DNA from: an uncultured Patescibacteria group bacterium
GTDB lineage: Bacteria > Patescibacteriota > Patescibacteriia > Veblenbacterales > UBA10138
Direction: 5' to 3'
NCBI GenBank assembly: GCA_937929825.1
Contig: CALFUV010000004.1
Coordinates: 1,042-65,041 of the forward strand
Length of the DNA: 64,000 nt
A program made the position numbers and the translations under genes. Position 1 is the first letter of the stretch, and every line of letters begins with the position of its first letter. Positions 3,337-59,960 of the stretch are shown here, piece by piece. The notes beneath the pieces were generated by a model, which made no database searches, had not been told where the DNA came from, and worked only from the letters and a program-made list of their open reading frames with translations.

Positions 3337-3427
3337 GTAAATTAATTTTCTTTATTTTATAACTTAATTGCTTAAATTACCAGTTTAAATAAAAAATAGC
3401 AATAAATAATTATTGAGGATATAAATC

Positions 3428-4057
3428 TTATTCACTTATAAGTGGTACAAAAACAAAACCCGGATATTCAGTGATATCAAAACTACTGCCTTTTTTTATA
3501 ATTCTTAACATGGTTTGAGTTTCCTTACCAACCGGCACAACCATTACTCCCCCATCTTTAAGTTGTGAAATTAACGCTTCAGGAATTCTACTTGCAGCTG
3601 CTGAAACTATTATACGGTCATATGGTGAATTTTTTTTATAGCCTTGAGTACCATCACCTATAATATATTGAACTCTTTTTCCCAATAAATCTTTAATATT
3701 CTCTCTGCCCTGCTTGGCTAAAATTTTTATTCTTTCCATAGCCACTACCGAACCTTGAAGACCAACAATAGCAGCCAACAATGCAGTTACATAACCAGAA
3801 CCAGCGCCAATCTCTAATATATTTTGACCAGACTCCGGCGATAGTAATTCCAGCATAAACGCCACGGTACTAGGTTGAGAAATAGTCTGTCCCTCACCTA
3901 TTGGGAGAGGTTGATCAGCATACGCTAACCCTTGCCATTTTTTATTTATAAAATGCGCTCTGTCAACTTTTATAAACCCGTTTATTAACGCCGGTGTTTT
4001 TAAAACACCCCGGGCAATCATAAAATCAACCAGAGCTTGGTTGGATTCAAAAATCAT
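3428..4057 (-). CDS. pcm: Protein-L-isoaspartate O-methyltransferase
   Basis: TISQPSTVAFMLELL, ILEIGAGSGY and DRIIVSAAA motifs, typical of PCMT. Confidence 0.85.
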   Translation of the reverse strand: MIFESNQALVDFMIARGVLKTPALINGFIKVDRAHFINKKWQGLAYADQPLPIGEGQTISQPSTVAFMLELLSPESGQNILEIGAGSGYVTALLAAIVGLQGSVVAMERIKILAKQGRENIKDLLGKRVQYIIGDGTQGYKKNSPYDRIIVSAAASRIPEALISQLKDGGVMVVPVGKETQTMLRIIKKGSSFDITEYPGFVFVPLISE

Positions 4058-4611: not shown

Positions 4612-5472
4612 CTAAAACTGACATTGTGCACAATAATGAGTACCTCTTCCGGCAATAATTGTTTTATTTATAGCCCGACCACAGCGTCGACAGGGTTCAT
4701 CTGTTCGACCATATACATAACGATTCTGCCAATATGAACCATTCTTACCCAAAGCATCCACATAATTGCTAAAAGAAGTACCACGTGCCATAATTGCTCG
4801 TCTTAATACTTGTTTAATAGACCTATGTAAATTTCTTAGCTGTTGAAGTTTTAATTCAGCTACCTGCCGGTCTGGTTTAATTCTTGCTAAAAATAAACTC
4901 TCATCTACATAAATATTACCCAAACCGGCTACCACTTTTTGATCAAGCAATACTGATTTTATCTTGGAGCGACTACGCTTCTTTAAAATTTTTATAAACC
5001 TGCTTAGGGTAAAACTACTACTTAAAGGCTCCGGTCCATATTTTGATAACCATAATTCTATTTCCTGCTGATTAACTAACTGCCAATAACCAAACTGCCT
5101 GACATCATTATAAAAAAGTTTAGAACCGTTTAATAAACCCAATGTAATATAAGTATATTTATTAGGCACCTTACTAACTCCAACAATGGGATGACCACCG
5201 CTTTTAACACCACCAGCTCGACCACGCCAAACTAACTGCCCAGTCATCTTTAAATGAATAATAAGATAATACCCGCTAGACAACTCAATTAATAAAAGTT
5301 TAGCCCGTCGTTTAACAGACAAAATTTTTGCGCCAAGTAGATAGTGATTAAAAAATATTAATTTATTCCTCAATAATTTAGGTTTATTAACCTTAAAATA
5401 ATTTATTCGTTGATTTACTAACACAGAAGCTAAATCACGTTTAATTGTTTCCACTTCTGGTAATTCGGGCAT
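4612..5472 (-). CDS. mutM: Formamidopyrimidine-DNA glycosylase (Fpg/Nei family)
   Basis: Canonical N-terminal MPELPEVE. C-terminal zinc finger CRRCG...HYCAQC. Confidence 0.85.
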   Translation of the reverse strand: MPELPEVETIKRDLASVLVNQRINYFKVNKPKLLRNKLIFFNHYLLGAKILSVKRRAKLLLIELSSGYYLIIHLKMTGQLVWRGRAGGVKSGGHPIVGVSKVPNKYTYITLGLLNGSKLFYNDVRQFGYWQLVNQQEIELWLSKYGPEPLSSSFTLSRFIKILKKRSRSKIKSVLLDQKVVAGLGNIYVDESLFLARIKPDRQVAELKLQQLRNLHRSIKQVLRRAIMARGTSFSNYVDALGKNGSYWQNRYVYGRTDEPCRRCGRAINKTIIAGRGTHYCAQCQF

Positions 5473-11341: not shown

Positions 11342-12382
11342 TTAAACTAAGCTGGCAGCTATTTCTACCAAACGGTTAGCATAACCCCATTCGTTGTCGT
11401 ACCAAGCAATAACTTTTACCATATTACCACCCACCACTTGAGTCAAGGAAAGATCAGCAATAGCCGAAGCAGAATTACCTATAATATCGGAGGAAACTAT
11501 AGGTTCACTGGTAACTTGCAAAATACCGCGGTACCGGGAACTTTTAGCTGCTGTGCGTAAGGCGTTATTAACTTGAGCTTTAGTTACTTTTTTGCGTTTC
11601 AAAACAAATGTAAAATCTGACAATGAACCACAAGGTGTCGGTACACGAATAGATAATCCATCAAACAATCCTTTTAACTGTGGGATAGTTTCAGTAGTAG
11701 CTATGGCAGCGCCGGTTGTTGTAGGCACAATATTCTGAGAAGCAGCTCGGGCGCGACGTAAATCTTTATGCGGTCCGTCAACTAAATTTTGATCTGCTGT
11801 ATAACTATGAATAGTAGTCATCATAGCTTTCTCTACACCAAAAGCTGATACCATTACTTGAGCAATAGGCGAAATACAATTAGTTGTACAAGAAGCATTG
11901 GAAAATATGCTATCATTAATTTTTTGTTTATCTCCAGCATTAACTCCTAAAACATAAGTTGGCACTCCTCCACCCTTAGCCGGCGCAGACAATATAACCC
12001 GCCGCGCACCGGCTTTAAGGTGCCAAATCGCGTCATTTTTTTTAGTAAACCTGCCAGTGCACTCCAATACTACTTCTACACCCATTTTTTTCCAAGGCAA
12101 ACGTGCTGGTTCTTTTTCAGCCAACACCGGATACTTTTTCCCTTCTACAATTAAATTTTTGCTGTCAGCTGATACTTTTTTATCGTATAAACCATACACA
12201 GTATCATAGCGCAGTAAATGCGCCAATACCCGCGGCGCTACTAAATCATTAATAGCTATGACTCTTAAATTTGGTTTAGTAAGAGCAATTTTAAAAGCCG
12301 CTCGGCCAATGCGTCCAAAGCCATTAATAGCTATATTAATTTGCTTATTTGTTTTGGGGTTTGTTGAGATATTTGGGAGCAT
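11342..12382 (-). CDS. gap: Glyceraldehyde-3-phosphate dehydrogenase
   Basis: INGFGRIGR Rossmann motif, the ASCTTNC active site and WYDNEWGY. Confidence 0.9.
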   Translation of the reverse strand: MLPNISTNPKTNKQINIAINGFGRIGRAAFKIALTKPNLRVIAINDLVAPRVLAHLLRYDTVYGLYDKKVSADSKNLIVEGKKYPVLAEKEPARLPWKKMGVEVVLECTGRFTKKNDAIWHLKAGARRVILSAPAKGGGVPTYVLGVNAGDKQKINDSIFSNASCTTNCISPIAQVMVSAFGVEKAMMTTIHSYTADQNLVDGPHKDLRRARAASQNIVPTTTGAAIATTETIPQLKGLFDGLSIRVPTPCGSLSDFTFVLKRKKVTKAQVNNALRTAAKSSRYRGILQVTSEPIVSSDIIGNSASAIADLSLTQVVGGNMVKVIAWYDNEWGYANRLVEIAASLV

Positions 12383-12516
12383 AAAAATTTAAGCTAATTA
12401 GTACGTATTAAGTATAACTCATCTTTGCTAATAAAAAAATAAGCTCTCTAGATATAAAGATAGCCTTATTTACTTCTTCTGAAGACATTAAGAATTTTTT
12501 AAACATTTTTATCAAG

Positions 12517-12553
12517 CTGTAAAAAGAAAGGTCTTTGCTTAACGCAAAGACCT
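12517..12553 (-). terminator. Rho-independent terminator (minus-strand orientation)
   Basis: Perfect stem GGTCTTTGC / GCAAAGACC with a 5-nt loop. On the minus strand it is followed by CTTTCTTTTT. Confidence 0.5.
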
Positions 12554-13094
12554 AATTCCGTAAATTAAAACTTTTTAAAAACAGACTACTAATTTTGCTA
12601 ACCGCAAAATGGTTTTTAGATGGTACTTTTATGTGTACCTTGCCATTTGTTCGCTACACGGTTGCGTGTTTTTTCTTTTTTAACCAATGTTGGCTTATTT
12701 CCCAAAAATCCTGGGAGCCTTAGCGGCCATACCGCAAGGAAAGAAAAAATGAGTCTGTTAAGTTTTATTTACTTATTTTGCGAACTTTGCTGATTGATTT
12801 TTCTCCTGTTGAAGAATATAGTATTTTTTGTACCGAAGGTACAGCCTTTAACAAGGAGTGGCACGAAAATCGTGCAATCAGCTTTTATTATATCCACACA
12901 TCGTAAACTGATTTTTTCTCCAAACTTGGAGTAACTCACCGTTTCTCCGGAAGTCCGGCGTAATCAATTCCGCTGTGGAATATTACCAACCTAGCTAAGC
13001 TAAGTAACGGTAATGATAATAATATAGTGAATTATTATTTAGGTCAATAATTATATCTTGGGATAAATTGTGGAAAGATAAAAATTATATCTTG
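12554..13094 (-). ncRNA. Candidate structured non-coding RNA of unknown family. It occupies the slot where frr normally follows pyrH
   Basis: About 540 bp with no ORF of 60 aa or more in any frame. It is locally GC-enriched. It contains many short GC-rich hairpins: GUACC-UUCG-GGUAC, GCACGA-UUU-UCGUGC, CCGGA-CU-UCCGG, CUCCAA-GU-UUGGAG and CCUUGCGG...CCGCUAAGG. It is bounded by a hairpin just after pyrH (about 13096-13114) and by the terminator at 12517-12553. The strand assignment rests on the orientation of that terminator. Confidence 0.25.
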
Positions 13095-13130
13095 GCTTAT
13101 TTAAGCCAAAATTAATAAATATTCACAATT

Positions 13131-13844
13131 TTAATAAGGTTTAATAAATGTACCAATTGATTTACCAAAAATCACCCTTACTAAAGCATTTTTTTGCCAG
13201 CGACAAACTACCACCGGTATTTTATATTTTAAACAAAAAGCAAAAGCCGATTTATCCATTATACCTAATTTTTCCCGAATAGCTTGCGATAAGGAAATAT
13301 CCTGATACTTTACGGCATTGGAACTACGCTTAGGATCTTTTGAATAAACCCCATCAGCTGGTCCACACTTAATTATTACTTGAGCATGTATATCACGTGC
13401 CCGCAGCACCGCCGCTGTATCGGTAGTAAAAAAGGGCTTACCTGTTCCACCGGCAAAAATAACAATTTCTCCTCGTCGTAAACTGCCGCGGGCAGCGACT
13501 GTATCTAGCACTTGAACACCTGGCAAATCATAAGCTATTGGTGATTGTAAAACTGCTGATAGTTTCTTTTTTTGTAAAGCCTCCCGCAATGCTAAACCAT
13601 TCATAACCGTGGCCAACAAACCTATATAATCAGCCGTGATATCACCTAATCCTTGACCATGCGTACGCCTTCGCCAAATATTACCGCCACCCACCACTAC
13701 CGCTGTTTCTATTTTTAGCTTTCTTAATTTCCTTAACTCCTCAATTATCATACTTAAATATCTCTTCTGAATACCACCTGATTTGCTACTAAAAGCTTCG
13801 CCTGAAAGCTTAATTAACACACGTTGATATTTAAATGTTGACAT
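13131..13844 (-). CDS. pyrH: UMP kinase
   Basis: KYQRVLIKLSGEAF N-terminus. Amino-acid-kinase-fold motifs. Confidence 0.9.
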   Translation of the reverse strand: MSTFKYQRVLIKLSGEAFSSKSGGIQKRYLSMIIEELRKLRKLKIETAVVVGGGNIWRRRTHGQGLGDITADYIGLLATVMNGLALREALQKKKLSAVLQSPIAYDLPGVQVLDTVAARGSLRRGEIVIFAGGTGKPFFTTDTAAVLRARDIHAQVIIKCGPADGVYSKDPKRSSNAVKYQDISLSQAIREKLGIMDKSAFAFCLKYKIPVVVCRWQKNALVRVIFGKSIGTFIKPY

Positions 13845-13937: not shown

Positions 13938-14528
13938 TTATCCTCCAAGAACGAATCTGGCAAATCTTTTTACTTTAATATTTTCACCTATAGTAGCCAC
14001 GGCTTCAGCAATAACATCACCAACTGTCTGTTTATCATTTTTAAAAAATGGTTGTAATAATAAACAAACTTCTTGGTAATATTTATTAAGCTTACCTTCT
14101 ATTATTTTTTCCGCTATATCTCCGCTTTTGCCCTCAGATGCTAATTGTTCGCGATAGACACTTTTTTCACGAGCGATAATTTCTGCCGGAATTTGTGATG
14201 GATCTAAATAAAGAGGGTTCGCGGCGGCAATTTGCATAGCTATATCATGAGCTAGTTCCTTAAACTTATCCGTTCTAGCTACGAAATCAGTTTCACAAGC
14301 CACCTCCACCAATACACCCAAACGACCTCCAGTATGAATATAAGCTTCTACCAAACCTTGTCCAGTAGCTCTCTCTCCTTTGGCGGCTGCCACTTTTACA
14401 CCACGCTGTCGCAGTAAATCAACCGCCTTATCAAAATTACCTCCAGCCTCTTCTAAAGCTTTTTTGGCCGCCATCATACCCGCGCCTGTTTGTTCTCTAA
14501 GTTTTTGCACTTCTTTTAAATCACTCAT
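13938..14528 (-). CDS. tsf: Elongation factor Ts (short form)
   Basis: LREQTGAGMMAAKKALEEAGGNFDKAVDLLRQRG is a UBA-like N-terminal signature. Confidence 0.9.
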   Translation of the reverse strand: MSDLKEVQKLREQTGAGMMAAKKALEEAGGNFDKAVDLLRQRGVKVAAAKGERATGQGLVEAYIHTGGRLGVLVEVACETDFVARTDKFKELAHDIAMQIAAANPLYLDPSQIPAEIIAREKSVYREQLASEGKSGDIAEKIIEGKLNKYYQEVCLLLQPFFKNDKQTVGDVIAEAVATIGENIKVKRFARFVLGG

Positions 14529-14545: not shown

Positions 14546-15259
14546 TTATTTACTTTGTCTTTCATGATTGCTTGATTCTTTTTTACCCTCTCTAATAGCT
14601 TGAACCACCAAATCAACCACCAGCTTAATTGAGCGTAGGGCATCGTCATTTCCGGGAATAACATACTGGATCATTTTCGGATTGGTGTCAGTATCTACAA
14701 TACCTATCACCGGCACATTAACTTTGTTAGCCTCACGAATAGCGTTTTTACCCTCCCTAACACCAACTATAAAAACAGCTTCCGGCAACTTAGTAAGTGT
14801 ACGAATGCCGCCAACCGTCAACATTAAACGATCTAAATCCTTTTGCAATTCTAACTGCTCTTTTTTGGTATACTGATTCCAAACACCTCTGTTCTTTTCT
14901 GCTTCCAGTTTATCCAAACGCTGAATAAGTTTACTAATTACACCCCAATTAGTAAAAACACCACCCAACCACCGCTCTACTATATAAGGCATACCAGTAT
15001 CTAAGGCGGCTTGACGTATAACTTCATCAGCTTGTTTTTTTAAACCAGTAAACAAAATCTGCCCGCCAGCTGCAGTCAATTCCTTAATAAAAACCAGAGC
15101 GCGATTAAGCTCCACAACCGTCTTTTCCAAATCAAGTATATGAATGCCCTGTCTTGATGTATAAATATACTGCCTCATGCGCGGGTGCCACTTTGAAGTC
15201 TGATGACCAAAGTGCACACCGGCTTTAAGCATTTCTACTAATGATGGGATTTCTGGCAT
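14546..15259 (-). CDS. rpsB: 30S ribosomal protein S2
   Basis: LKAGVHFGHQTSKWHPRM, the canonical S2 N-terminus. Confidence 0.95.
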   Translation of the reverse strand: MPEIPSLVEMLKAGVHFGHQTSKWHPRMRQYIYTSRQGIHILDLEKTVVELNRALVFIKELTAAGGQILFTGLKKQADEVIRQAALDTGMPYIVERWLGGVFTNWGVISKLIQRLDKLEAEKNRGVWNQYTKKEQLELQKDLDRLMLTVGGIRTLTKLPEAVFIVGVREGKNAIREANKVNVPVIGIVDTDTNPKMIQYVIPGNDDALRSIKLVVDLVVQAIREGKKESSNHERQSK

Positions 15260-27226: not shown

Positions 27227-27261
27227 TATTGATAAAACAAATAATAAGTGGTATTTTAAAT

Positions 27262-27445
27262 TTGTACCTGATTGTGGCGGCAACCAACCGCTAGATCCAA
27301 TATTTTGGATATCCCCATCTTATTAAGGGACTAAAGGTACAAACAATCTGCGAGCGGTCCGATATCTATCGGACAAGTTGGGTGGAACCCTCCGATTTAT
27401 ATCGGAGCCCAAACGTGGTTATCTCGTTTGGGTTATTTTATTTTA
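27262..27445 (+). promoter_or_regulatory. T-box riboswitch-like leader (Thr specifier) with intrinsic terminator, upstream of thrS
   Basis: Stem I base TTGTACC(27262-27268)/GGTACAA(27336-27342) with a GA (K-turn-like) motif. Candidate specifier ACU+A at 27330-27333, or ACC+A at 27283-27286. T-box-like sequence AAGTTGGGTGGAACC at about 27375-27390, against the consensus AATTAGGGTGGTACC. Terminator CCCAAACG...CGTTTGGG plus a U-tract at 27408-27445, overlapping the antiterminator. Confidence 0.5.
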
Positions 27446-27476
27446 TAATTAATCTTAGATTTAATATCTAAAATAT

Positions 27477-29234
27477 ATGCCTTCTTCGCTTGAAGTTAAA
27501 CGCCACTCCTTGGCACATCTATTAGCAGCTGCTGTTTTGGAACTTTACCCTCAAACTAAACGTGCTATTGGTCCAGCTATAGATGATGGGTTTTATTATG
27601 ACTTTGATTTTGGTGATATTAAAATCAGCGAATCCGATTTACCTGAGATTCAAAAAAAAATGCTGGAGTTGTTGCCAAGTTGGCAAAATTTTGAACGTGA
27701 AGAAATATCATCAACAGAGGCACAAAAAATTTTTCGGGACAATCCTTATAAACTTGAACTTATAGAAGAATTGTCTTCTGAAGGTCAAACCTTATCCATC
27801 TATACCAGCGGAACTTTTACTGATCTTTGCCGCGGCGGGCATACTGAAAACATGGCAGAAATTGCTGAAGGATCTTGGCAATTAGATAGAATTGCTGGCG
27901 CTTACTGGCGTGGCAATGAAAAAAATAAAATGCTAACCAGAATCTATGGCTTAGCTTTTGAAACTAAAAAAGAATTAGATAATTATCTCAAACAACGCGC
28001 AGAGGCAGCTAAACGCGACCATCGCAAACTAGGTAAAGAACTTAAACTGTTTACTTTTTCTGATTACGTTGGCCCTGGACTGCCATTATGGCTACCTGCT
28101 GGCGCAGTACTGACTGAGGAATTAGAAAAGCTAGCTAAGGAAACTGAATTCAAAGCTGGTTATAAAATTATCCGCACACCTCATATTGCCAAAGAATTAA
28201 TGTATAAAACTTCCGGCCATCTTCCTTATTATGCGGACAGTATGTTTCCTCCGCTAACTACGGAGGATGAAAATGAAAAAACAGTTTATTATCTTAAAGC
28301 TATGAACTGCCCACATCATCATCAAGTCTACTTAGCTGAACCCAGAAGCTATCGCGACCTACCTCTACGTCTCGCTGAATATGGCACAGTATATCGCTAT
28401 GAAAAATCTGGTGAACTTTTTGGTTTAATGCGCGTGCGTATGCTTTCTATGAATGACGCCCATATTTACTGCACACCGGAACAATTCAGTGCTGAATTTC
28501 AAGCGGTGAATAAAATGTATATTAATTACTTCAAACTTTTTGGCATTACCAAGTATATTATGCGTTTTTCCACCCATGATCCAGCTGAACTTGACAAAAA
28601 ATATGTGAACGAACCAGAAATCTGGCTCCAAACTGAAAATATGGTCAGACAAGTACTTAAAGATAGCAACATAAATTTTGAGGAAGTACCAAACGAAGCC
28701 GCTTTTTACGGGCCTAAAATAGATGTACAGGTTTGGAGCAGTATTGGTCGCGAATTTACACTAGCGACTAATCAGGTCGATTTTGTTCAACCTAAACGCT
28801 TTAACTTAACTTATATAGATAAGGGCGGAGTGGAAAAAACTCCCTTGTGTATTCACCGCGCCCCCTTAAGTACACATGAAAGATTTATAGGTTTCATAAT
28901 TGAGCATTATGCCGGTGCTTTTCCAGTTTGGCTATCACCAATTCAGATTAAATTATTACCAGTTGGCAGTACTCATATTGATTATTGTCAAAAATTAGCC
29001 GGGGAATTAAGAGAAAAAATGATTAGAGTGGAAGTGGACGATGCTAACGAAACTATTGGTAATAAAATCCGTAAAGCAGAAAAAGAGAAAATACCCTACG
29101 CTTTAGTAATTGGTAATAAAGAAATAGAATCTGGTAATTTAGCTATACGCCAACGTGGTAACAAAAAAATTACATTAATTGAAAGAAATAAATTTATAAA
29201 TTCACTATTGGAAGAAATTACCAACAGAAAATAA
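27477..29234 (+). CDS. thrS: Threonyl-tRNA synthetase (lacks N-terminal TGS domain)
   Basis: The protein starts in the editing/SAD domain (RHSLAHLL, CRGGHTEN). Class II core and C-terminal anticodon-binding domain follow. 585 aa against about 640 for full-length enzymes. Confidence 0.9.
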   Translation: MPSSLEVKRHSLAHLLAAAVLELYPQTKRAIGPAIDDGFYYDFDFGDIKISESDLPEIQKKMLELLPSWQNFEREEISSTEAQKIFRDNPYKLELIEELSSEGQTLSIYTSGTFTDLCRGGHTENMAEIAEGSWQLDRIAGAYWRGNEKNKMLTRIYGLAFETKKELDNYLKQRAEAAKRDHRKLGKELKLFTFSDYVGPGLPLWLPAGAVLTEELEKLAKETEFKAGYKIIRTPHIAKELMYKTSGHLPYYADSMFPPLTTEDENEKTVYYLKAMNCPHHHQVYLAEPRSYRDLPLRLAEYGTVYRYEKSGELFGLMRVRMLSMNDAHIYCTPEQFSAEFQAVNKMYINYFKLFGITKYIMRFSTHDPAELDKKYVNEPEIWLQTENMVRQVLKDSNINFEEVPNEAAFYGPKIDVQVWSSIGREFTLATNQVDFVQPKRFNLTYIDKGGVEKTPLCIHRAPLSTHERFIGFIIEHYAGAFPVWLSPIQIKLLPVGSTHIDYCQKLAGELREKMIRVEVDDANETIGNKIRKAEKEKIPYALVIGNKEIESGNLAIRQRGNKKITLIERNKFINSLLEEITNRK

Positions 29235-59449: not shown

Positions 59450-59563
59450 AAAATAGAATTGAAAATTAGAAATCTAGAATTAGAGTATAATTTACAGCTT
59501 AAAACTGTCATCGCCGCTTCCGGCCCACCGATAAAAAGCAGTAAGCCGGGAAGCATCGACGAT

Positions 59564-59830
59564 CTAAACAAACTTAATAATCAAAGCCATAACCAAAGCA
59601 TAAATAGCAATTGCTTCACAAAAAGCAATGGCTAAAATCATAGCTGTTTGCACTTTGGAAGCAGCTTCGGGATTGCGACCAATTGATTCCATGGCCTTAG
59701 CGGCTAAACGACCTATAGCTAGGGCCGGAAAAATACCGCCAATGGCAATGGTAGCACCGGCAGCTATACTCTTTAAAGTTTCCGGATTTAGACTGGAAAC
59801 TGTTTGTACAAGTTCATTTTCTACTGCCAT
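59564..59830 (-). CDS. atpE: ATP synthase Fo subunit c
   Basis: Two-helix hairpin with a GRNPE loop and a carboxylate in the AFCEAIAIYALV helix. No Na+-site Gln is evident, so it is probably H+-type. Confidence 0.9.
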   Translation of the reverse strand: MAVENELVQTVSSLNPETLKSIAAGATIAIGGIFPALAIGRLAAKAMESIGRNPEAASKVQTAMILAIAFCEAIAIYALVMALIIKFV

Positions 59831-59960
59831 ATTTTATAGACCTTTCTTAAATACCTCTTGATTCCGCTACAGATGTATCAATTTTTTATATCTGTCGGTT
59901 CAAAAGGCGATTAGTGATTAGCGCGTTTTAGCTATTAATCTAACTAAAACGCGCCAAGCT

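Follow-up and report, generated by a model that had tools for sequence, protein, structure and literature searches.

A probable large structured RNA gene in the variable pyrH-gap spacer of a Patescibacteria bacterium and its relatives

What occupies the gene-free interval behind pyrH in an uncultured Patescibacteria group bacterium? The locus lies in a 64,000-nucleotide stretch (assembly GCA_937929825.1, contig CALFUV010000004.1, positions 1,042 to 65,041), referred to here as the window, which is low-GC DNA (∼36% G+C) of the Patescibacteria (candidate phyla radiation, CPR) and whose minus strand reads rpsB, tsf, pyrH, a 748-bp spacer, gap, pgk, and eno. Genomes of Patescibacteria are tiny and hold little spare DNA. 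An initial annotation, made by reading the sequence alone, had placed an independent structured RNA of 450 to 550 nucleotides (nt) on the minus strand of this spacer, in the slot where frr normally follows pyrH. The analyses described below moderately favor the view that the spacer holds a complete and separately transcribed minus-strand noncoding RNA (ncRNA) gene of ∼495 nt, whose product would act in trans and would represent a new orphan family; judged from sequence comparison, the large structured RNA is genuine and probably a new orphan.

The spacer has no apparent protein-coding capacity. Some 750 bp without an open reading frame (ORF) of at least 60 amino acids (aa) had been described, and this was borne out, the longest ORFs in the 748 bp being 57 aa on the plus strand and 56 aa on the minus strand, with stop codons in all six frames and no match of the small spacer ORFs to any NCBIfam family. 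An alternative genetic code was considered and rejected: when TGA was taken as a sense codon, no stretch stayed open for more than 104 codons, that one lying on the strand opposite to that of the neighboring genes, and no convincing ORF emerged. Tandem repeats were absent at a score of ≥30. The G+C content inside the spacer (0.37 to 0.40) exceeds that of the adjoining noncoding DNA (0.23 to 0.30) and lies within the range of coding DNA (0.35 to 0.47), so that the local GC enrichment reported initially holds against neighboring noncoding DNA but not against coding DNA. On the minus strand, positions 12500 to 13130 fold with a minimum free energy (MFE) of −180.6 kcal/mol, compared with −119.9 ± 5.8 kcal/mol in dinucleotide shuffles (z −10.5), while the plus strand reaches a z of −4.7. 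G-U pairs make up 12 of the 161 predicted pairs and are workable on the minus strand only; because of these pairs and the direction of the promoter and terminator, the RNA strand was taken to be the minus strand.

The spacer and the transcription signals recognized in it are as follows.

12383-13130, pyrH-gap spacer of 748 bp, bounded by the stop of pyrH (13131) and the start of gap (12382)
13119-13127, minus strand, 9-mer TGTGAATAT, similar to an inverted DnaA box; upstream arm of the putative operator (sequence reading and alignment)
13112-13089, minus strand, hairpin with the 18-bp palindrome TTGGCTTAAATAAGCCAA (13109-13092), resembling a pyrH terminator (terminator scan and alignment)
13058-13076, minus strand, tandem 9-mers TTTCCACAA and TTATCCCAA, putative operator (pattern kept in six diverged loci)
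13047-13019, minus strand, sigma-70-type promoter TTGACC-17-TATTAT, with 10 of 12 consensus positions (consensus scan)
13013-12520, minus strand, RNA of ∼495 nt, with predicted start UUACCGU (13013-13007) and end at the terminator U-tract
12553-12520, minus strand, intrinsic terminator with a 10-bp stem AGGUCUUUGC/GCAAAGACCU followed by UUUCUUUUU (hairpin 12553-12529 and U-tract)
12383-12519, minus strand, post-RNA spacer with an apparent remnant promoter (TTGATA), then the gap promoter (sequence reading and alignment)

Terminator-like hairpins had been noted at both ends of the region, and both were found (13112-13089, and 12553-12529 with its U-tract); altogether, three terminator-like sites fall in the region, against 0.5 expected. 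The structured interval was initially drawn at 12517-13115, of which ∼13013-12520 stands as RNA, whereas the first ∼100 nt (13014-13115) are promoter and operator DNA, a segment that extends to 13127 when the upstream 9-mer is counted in.

The same arrangement recurs in related genomes (numbered loci, prefix L). Patescibacteria relatives with the order rpsB-tsf-pyrH-gap-pgk-eno carry homologous RNAs of ∼0.45 to 0.87 kb with the same promoter and the same first bases, and the RNA measures ∼455 nt in L001, 495 nt in the window, 600 nt in L087, 820 nt in L082, and ∼870 nt in L140. The members L082, L087, and L140 were new, being retrieved via twelve GAPDH relatives, and a chain of nhmmer matches connects the family (window-L006, 6e-26; window-L087, 4e-11; L087-L006, 2e-10; L087-L082, 8e-9; L082-L001, 4e-10). 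The −35 element, the 17-nt spacer, and the distance to TTACCG(T) are identical in L001, L006, L082, L087, and L140, and these five loci and the window have in common the pattern CACA-N3-TATYC-N13-TTGACC-N17-TAnnAT-N5-TTACCG, whose upstream part (CACA-N3-TATYC-N13-TTGACC) occurs once in the 64-kb window. Near-identical copies of L001 (L086, L098, L110, L116, and L117) also show the promoter and 5′-end pattern, and L001-type organisms turn up repeatedly in JGI metagenomes (L098 to L117). A metagenome scan with this pattern gave 49 matches, among which the real ones were four near-identical L001 copies, adding no diversity, and two scans of viral contigs found no related sequence. Equivalent terminators end the RNA in L087, L082, L001, and L140. 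The region and its hairpins are thus kept in related genomes, as an independent RNA gene would lead one to expect.

Upstream of the promoter, the tandem boxes are TTATCCACA-like 9-mers resembling DnaA boxes, spaced by roughly one turn of the helix, with 10 nt between them and the −35 element (13 nt from the TATCC core). The TGTGAATAT 9-mer has the counterpart TGTGGATAA or TGTGGATTA in L001, L006, and L082, and the sequence of the palindromic hairpin is also kept in these three loci, though it stands there behind a different gene and terminator; the upstream inverted 9-mer and the palindrome TTGGCT...AGCCAA are therefore present in four of the six family loci. At one end, the inverted arms TGTGGA...TCCACA enclose the palindrome. 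Since this putative operator is conserved, expression of the RNA is likely to be regulated. A chromosomal replication origin was considered and rejected: GC skew is negative throughout the 64 kb, most window genes lie on the minus strand, and DnaA-box matches across the window (30, compared with 18.8 expected) show a marginal excess over chance. Thus, despite its DnaA-box-like 9-mers, the spacer is not a replication origin, because neither a GC-skew switch nor divergent gene orientation was found, both flanking genes being on the minus strand.

Boxes of a similar kind were seen elsewhere in the lineage. A DnaA-box-like TTATCCAC(A) lies 3 to 5 nt upstream of the −35 element in spacer promoters of L002, L003, L083, and L084, and 13 nt upstream in L007. 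The sites are the following.

L002, ∼5088-5140, TTATCCAC-box site
L003, ∼5183-5235, TTATCCAC-box site
L007, ∼5026-5075, TTATCCAC-box site
L083, ∼3490-3520, TTATCCAC-box site
L084, ∼2340-2385, TTATCCAC-box site

In L002 and L003, the TTATCCAC-type box is repeated just after the −10 element, and the promoters concerned include those of protein-coding genes. Such an operator may not be specific to the RNA but may serve a lineage-typical regulator.

How the predicted RNA is built can be described as a series of domains, listed here from the 5′ end.

12984-13012, minus strand, P1, UUACC pairing with GGUAA and closing a short hairpin (predicted fold)
12890-12983, minus strand, D1, the domain holding the family core
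12884-12964, minus strand, family core in D1, consisting of hairpins X (CCGG-ACUU-CCGG) and Y (CUCCA-AGUU-UGGAG), then GGAUA...AAAAG (model R3)
12789-12882, minus strand, D2, five-way junction with stem GCUGAUU/AAUCAGC and four hairpins, including the GUACCUUCGGUAC hairpin (model R1)
12751-12772, minus strand, 5′ strand of a long-range helix, GUAAAUAAAACUUAACAGACUC, pairing with 12560-12590 and enclosing D3 and D4 (predicted fold)
12670-12748, minus strand, D3, four-way junction with a U-rich/A-rich closing stem and three hairpins (model R2)
12592-12669, minus strand, D4, hairpins set apart by conserved unpaired segments (CGAACAAAUGG, ACCAU, and a GGUUA loop), supported by eye and more weakly
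12560-12590, minus strand, 3′ strand of the long-range helix (predicted fold)

When the window RNA and the L087 RNA were folded separately, their MFE structures showed the same succession of D2, long-range helix, D3, and terminator; the termini of the RNA are not paired with each other in the predicted fold. The long-range helix was predicted independently in both RNAs, and its helix 1 is 83% paired in an unfitted alignment, which gives it partial support. The P1 closing stem recurs in L006, L087, and L082, where it encloses an extra domain of 120 to 250 nt that the window lacks. A UUCG-tetraloop hairpin had been reported initially as GUACC-UUCG-GGUAC; the hairpin GUACCUUCGGUAC does exist, at 12842-12830, but with the 13-nt sequence GUAC-C-UUCG-GUAC, one base shorter, and its counterpart in L087 is the canonical GGUAC-UUCG-GUACC. 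In the family core, the loops ACUUC of X and (A/G)AGUU of Y are invariant and mutually complementary in four members, and RNAalifold joins X with Y as one extended helix instead of two hairpins. A kissing interaction, a two-state switch, or a single long stem could each account for the X/Y loops, and in these models the three are equally compatible with the data.

Across the family, entire domains have come or gone at fixed positions from one genome to another, while the order of modules is constant. UUACCGU with P1 opens the 5′ end, a 5′ domain and then a middle insert may follow, the X/Y core comes next, and a 3′ domain set may close the series. In the window, a minimal P1 hairpin precedes the X/Y core, and the 3′ set is complete.

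Whether the pairing itself is under selection was assessed by covariance models and counts of compensatory changes. Models R1 (D2) and R2 (D3) were derived from one sequence only, that of the window, and the structure predicted for it, a choice made because MAFFT misaligns hairpins with turned-over sequence, RNAalifold being uninformative on MAFFT alignments. R1 matched L006 (38 bits, E 2e-6) and L087 (21 bits, E 0.04), and R2 matched L087 at 3359-3447 (18 bits, E 0.07), in each case at the syntenic position, and neither model had a match outside syntenic positions in 188 kb. In the fitted alignment of D2, 92% of cells were paired, compared with 34 to 50% when the structure was slid along the alignment, with 8 double changes against 0 to 1; for D3, likewise fitted, the values were 100% against 39 to 56%, with 9 double changes against 0. 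Unfitted MAFFT alignments gave 75.7% against 28 to 42% for D1 (7 double changes against 1 to 2) and 70% against 40 to 48% for the 3′ half in the window, L087, and part of L006 (11 double changes against 3 to 7). Model R3, for the X/Y core, scored 73.5 bits in the window, 81 in L006, 88 in L082, and 100 in L001, which are matches by construction, as R3 was built from these four sequences; it gave no match in L087 or L140. No second copy of the RNA was found with models R1 to R3 in the 64-kb window or in 18 related loci. The compensatory changes show, at the level of sequence comparison, selection on pairing at least along some branches, and together with the conserved promoter and the terminator they uphold the proposal of an independent, stable RNA on the minus strand.

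No known family accounts for this RNA. The initial annotation could not assign the region to RNase P RNA, tmRNA, signal recognition particle (SRP) RNA, or 6S RNA by eye, and the searches agree: Rfam 15 at gathering thresholds gave no match in the whole 64 kb, rRNA families included, and ARAGORN found no tRNA or tmRNA gene in the window. Relaxing Rfam to an E of up to 10 on 12300-13250 returned only subthreshold, terminator-like noise (Lnt, PyrR, rliB, and similar), nothing consistent appeared in the homologous RNAs of relatives even in relaxed searches, and none of the literature searched describes such an RNA. RNase P RNA was rejected, with no Rfam match to an E of 10 and, on reading the sequence, no P4 strings (GGAAAGUCC ... 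ACAGAA-N-CGGCUUA). The same applies to tmRNA, with no ARAGORN gene, Rfam match, or tRNA-like end, and to SRP and 6S RNA, with no Rfam match and with a multijunction fold, unpaired termini, and a length of ∼495 nt, compared with 180 to 200 nt for the rod of 6S RNA. OLE, ROOL, GOLLD, raiA, and HEARO showed no covariance-model match in the window or its relatives. The neighborhoods typical of orphan RNAs (oap genes, tRNA or prophage genes, and IscB) were not seen either, the neighbors being pyrH and gap-pgk-eno and, in relatives, a secreted small protein and small ORFs. Guide arrays of the TIGR or CRISPR-like type were rejected, with no tandem repeats (score of ≥30) and no effector-like neighbor.

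The features generic to a stand-alone ncRNA gene are present here, namely, its own promoter and terminator, no ORF, and a structure kept by covariation. Like OLE RNA (RF01071), the pyrH-gap RNA belongs to the ∼0.5- to 0.6-kb size class, with multihelix junctions, conserved single strands, predicted stand-alone expression, and narrow taxonomy; unlike OLE, it gives no model match at an E of <10, occurs in Patescibacteria rather than Bacillota, has no adjacent oapA-type gene, is dispensable in close relatives, and gains or loses whole domains. With ROOL (RF03087) and GOLLD (RF01998) it shares large size, an ornate fold, a patchy and accessory-like distribution, and variable domains, but no model match was obtained and no tRNA or phage genes lie beside it. 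ROOL and GOLLD RNAs are reported to assemble as homo-oligomers (PMC12286853). That the ACUUC/AAGUU loop pair might mediate multimer contacts of this kind is, by analogy, pure speculation. The RNA resembles housekeeping RNAs in being a stand-alone gene with a strong promoter and terminator in a core-gene neighborhood and in a size near those of RNase P RNA and tmRNA, whereas close relatives lack it at this site and its sequence evolves much faster, which sets it apart.

Several points weigh against a functional, trans-acting RNA family. Its distribution is patchy: the close relative L081 has a spacer of only 150 bp without the RNA, and the spacers of L083, L084, L138, and L168 have other contents, so that genomes can dispense with the RNA, which could be drifting. 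The transcript from the conserved promoter in L140 holds a 68-aa ORF, and the family is therefore not strictly noncoding everywhere. Both transcript ends are predicted. In the structural comparison, D2 is covered by three sequences (window, L087, and the truncated L006) and D3 and D4 by two; the single-sequence model matches in L087 are marginal taken alone (E 0.04 and 0.07); the best pair counts, those for D2 and D3, rest on structure-fitted alignments; and the 3′ half is supported modestly on its unfitted alignment.

A first alternative takes the transcript for what is left of a variable accessory island, namely, untranslated mRNA of a small protein that was deprived of its coding partners and serves no function itself. 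This spacer is hypervariable from one close relative to the next, and where theirs hold a signal-peptide protein of 127, 128, or 148 aa and ORFs of 39 to 68 aa, the window has only the remnant promoter at ∼12520-12440; moreover, the 68-aa ORF driven by the conserved promoter in L140 is a member of the small-protein family. The copy in the window is, however, undecayed, with a promoter at 10 of 12 consensus positions, the terminator and every helix intact, and a z of −10.5. The RNA of L001, L082, and L087 also stops at its own terminator before any small ORF, and the compensatory changes point to selection on pairing in at least some branches, which leaves this alternative unlikely.

The RNA might instead be a long cis-acting leader of gap-pgk-eno, of riboswitch or attenuator type, in which the terminator at 12553-12520 is regulated and read-through feeds gap. 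It lies on the same strand directly upstream of gap, 138 nt from the start codon, its size and multijunction fold would suit a leader that senses a ligand or protein, and glycolysis is central to these organisms. Like riboswitches, T-boxes, and ribosomal-protein leaders, it is structured, precedes an operon, and ends in an intrinsic terminator; unlike them, it has its own promoter, with a second promoter for gap and, in relatives, an intervening unit, and its ∼500 nt are far above the length of known leaders. In the window, the −10 element of the gap promoter, TATACT, lies at 12416-12411 on the minus strand, and of the seven loci read, six have a TATACT-type −10 directly after a T-tract ahead of gap, L081 having TATAAT; a gap promoter was thus found right after the terminator in every locus read, even in the RNA-less L081. 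A complete small-ORF transcription unit (∼40 aa, with its own promoter, strong Shine-Dalgarno sequence, and terminator) separates the RNA terminator from gap in L001, L086, and L087. No alternative antiterminator pairing was apparent, and no riboswitch family scored even at an E of <10. Because gap keeps its own promoter and a separate unit intervenes in relatives, we regard a cis-leader role as quite improbable.

A third possibility, a mobile or defense-type element inserted between pyrH and gap, of which the RNA would be a guide-like or scaffold part, draws on presence or absence of the RNA among genomes with ∼80% identical GAPDH and on the inverted arms around the palindrome at one end. GOLLD and ROOL are, moreover, often located on mobile DNA (PMC12286853). 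Against this stand the absence of an adjacent transposase, integrase, reverse transcriptase, nuclease, or phage gene in the window and its relatives (PADLOC and PHROGs were not run on the neighbors), the lack of tandem repeats, the lack of a second copy in the 64 kb or the 18 related loci, and viral contigs without a relative; we consider such an element very improbable. A degraded frr pseudogene in the ancestral slot has only the position in its favor, given the pyrH-frr order outside Patescibacteria, and with empty tblastn searches and a promoter, terminator, and compensatory changes typical of an RNA gene, its probability is negligible.

The frr question itself is answered by the order of genes in the lineage. 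The neighbors are the following.

14546-15259, minus strand, rpsB (Pfam and NCBIfam)
13938-14528, minus strand, tsf (Pfam and NCBIfam)
13131-13844, minus strand, pyrH (UMP kinase), the upstream neighbor (Pfam AA_kinase; NCBIfam TIGR02075 pyrH_bact, E 1e-68)
11342-12382, minus strand, gap (type I GAPDH), first of gap-pgk-eno (Pfam and NCBIfam)

Pfam and NCBIfam thereby support the identities first given to rpsB, tsf, and pyrH, and also that of gap. The closest pyrH relative is that of Parcubacteria bacterium GW2011_GWD2_43_10 (62% identity), and the nearest GAPDH relatives carry the labels Veblenbacteria, Kerfeldbacteria, and Komeilibacteria. In 69 of the 72 non-Patescibacteria loci fetched, frr follows pyrH directly (tblastn with Escherichia coli ribosome recycling factor, RRF; 1e-30 to 1e-74), whereas with the same query at an E of up to 10 no frr was found after pyrH in any of the nine Patescibacteria relatives with a readable downstream stretch, nor anywhere in the 64-kb window, the spacer included. 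The expectation of a pyrH-frr order is therefore sound in general but does not extend to these relatives, and no frr remnant of the kind considered initially was detected. Since pyrH in this lineage precedes gap-pgk-eno, without frr in nine relatives, the RNA does not replace frr; on this sequence evidence, it sits in a variable pyrH-gap spacer and is no stand-in for that gene.

This spacer differs widely within the clade, in which the order is rpsB-tsf-pyrH-[variable spacer]-gap-pgk-eno-gpmI. It measures 1.0 to 2.1 kb in L001/L086, L082, L087, and L140 and at least 1.1 kb, up to the contig end, in L006; in L084, 352 bp contain a different, hairpin-rich unit of ∼190 nt, and the spacers of L083 and L138 contain other genes. 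GAPDH-anchored loci without the RNA were L081, L083, L084, L088, L138, L139, and L168. Between pyrH and the RNA promoter, relatives carry a fast-evolving signal-peptide protein of 127 to 148 aa that the window lacks; it has a SANSPP-type motif after the hydrophobic segment and no Pfam match. This gene and the small-protein genes of the spacer, each of the latter with a strong Shine-Dalgarno sequence, were located as follows.

L001, 1744-2127, signal-peptide protein gene
L006, 795-1178, signal-peptide protein gene
L140, 1722-2108, signal-peptide protein gene
L087, 2071-2517, signal-peptide protein gene
L001, 2750-3113, spacer small-protein gene
L087, 3590-3950, spacer small-protein gene
L140, 2790-3160 and 3376-3582, spacer small-protein genes
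L083, 3659-3766, spacer small-protein gene

Most of the small-protein genes have their own promoter and terminator, the 68-aa ORF of L140 using the RNA promoter. Two families were distinguished, one of 39 to 68 aa with the motif MxxLI(R/K)APL(I/V)GRVxPQAGEKV in L001, L086, L087, and L140, and one of 54 to 55 aa with the motif MI(H/Y)(V/I)P...ARS(L/M)GKHxSG in L087 and L140; neither is present in the window. The 3′ untranslated region of the first family is more conserved between L001 and L087 than the large RNA is. Just past the RNA terminator, at 12440-12520 on the minus strand, the window sequence ...CAGCTTGATAAAAATG... can be aligned with the TTGACA promoter that precedes the small ORF in L001 and L087, and this ORF-less promoter remnant is apparently a deletion scar. 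More distant Patescibacteria (pyrH ∼50% identical) have 1.4 to 2 kb without an ORF of >90 aa from pyrH to gap (L007, 4323-6310; L003, 6202-7608), with promoter-like sites in the L007 stretch, and these ORF-poor stretches may be further unannotated RNAs. The contigs of L006 and L003 are titled "uncultured Gammaproteobacteria," yet their pyrH is of the Patescibacteria type, L006 additionally carrying the RNA family and L003 a Patescibacteria-type gap; both are probably misbinned or mislabeled.

Other long intergenic stretches of the window fold near chance, with two exceptions. One, 27227-27476, comprises 250 bp between plus-strand genes and folds on the plus strand with an MFE of −70.5 (z −4.1 against shuffles); within it are a promoter-like TTGATA-17-TATTTT (27229-27257), a three-way junction and further hairpins, and a terminator-like end CCCAAACG...CGUUUGGG with a U-rich tail, without an Rfam match at gathering. 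The stretch is a candidate for a small RNA of ∼190 nt or, alternatively, for the leader of the gene at 27477 (585 aa). The other, 59450-59960 (511 bp, strongly folding), was rejected as noncoding, as it holds the 88-aa atpE (59564-59830, minus strand) between atpB and atpF, a gene that had fallen under the 100-aa ORF cutoff used for listing intergenic stretches.

Returning to the pyrH-gap RNA as a separately transcribed gene, we suggest that it would act in trans as a folded molecule, being neither an mRNA nor a leader of gap. To our knowledge, bacterial ncRNAs of more than ∼400 nt with several multihelix junctions are rare, and almost every such class found so far has proved to be a ribozyme, the core of a ribonucleoprotein, or a particle that assembles itself. 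Because of its size, junction-rich fold, conserved single strands, and modularity, the pyrH-gap RNA would be of the trans-acting scaffold, ribonucleoprotein, or ribozyme type, most likely a protein-binding scaffold or a component of a ribonucleoprotein, with a ribozyme less likely. The D1 loops ACUUC and AAGUU would be the best candidates for a functional site; they could form a kissing contact, either intramolecular or intermolecular, or switch from two hairpins to a single extended helix and back. Transcription is probably controlled by a DNA-binding protein whose sites would be the palindrome and the TTATCCACA-like 9-mers ahead of the −35 element. As close relatives do without the RNA, it appears to be accessory rather than essential. 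A new class of large modular trans-acting RNA in a Patescibacteria clade (relatives labeled Veblenbacteria, Kerfeldbacteria, and Parcubacteria), acting as a ribonucleoprotein scaffold, a self-assembling RNA, or a ribozyme, with the complementary ACUUC/AAGUU loops as its active or assembly interface and a regulator at DnaA-box-like TTATCCACA-type sites possibly tying its level to replication status, is a more ambitious proposal, not sighted before, that we put forward as doubtful.

RNA biology of Patescibacteria is, as far as we know, almost unexplored, because standard annotation (Rfam and tRNA finders) is blind here. A noncoding gene of 0.5 to 0.8 kb is unlikely to be idle, given the tiny genomes and the conserved, apparently regulated promoter. 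If the RNA were merely a drifting accessory transcript, its value would be modest and mainly annotational. If it is real and functional, it would add an orphan RNA of large size to those open to structural and biochemical work, supply a natural series of domain insertions and deletions from which the essential core can be read, and serve as a marker of a hypervariable island between two housekeeping operons.

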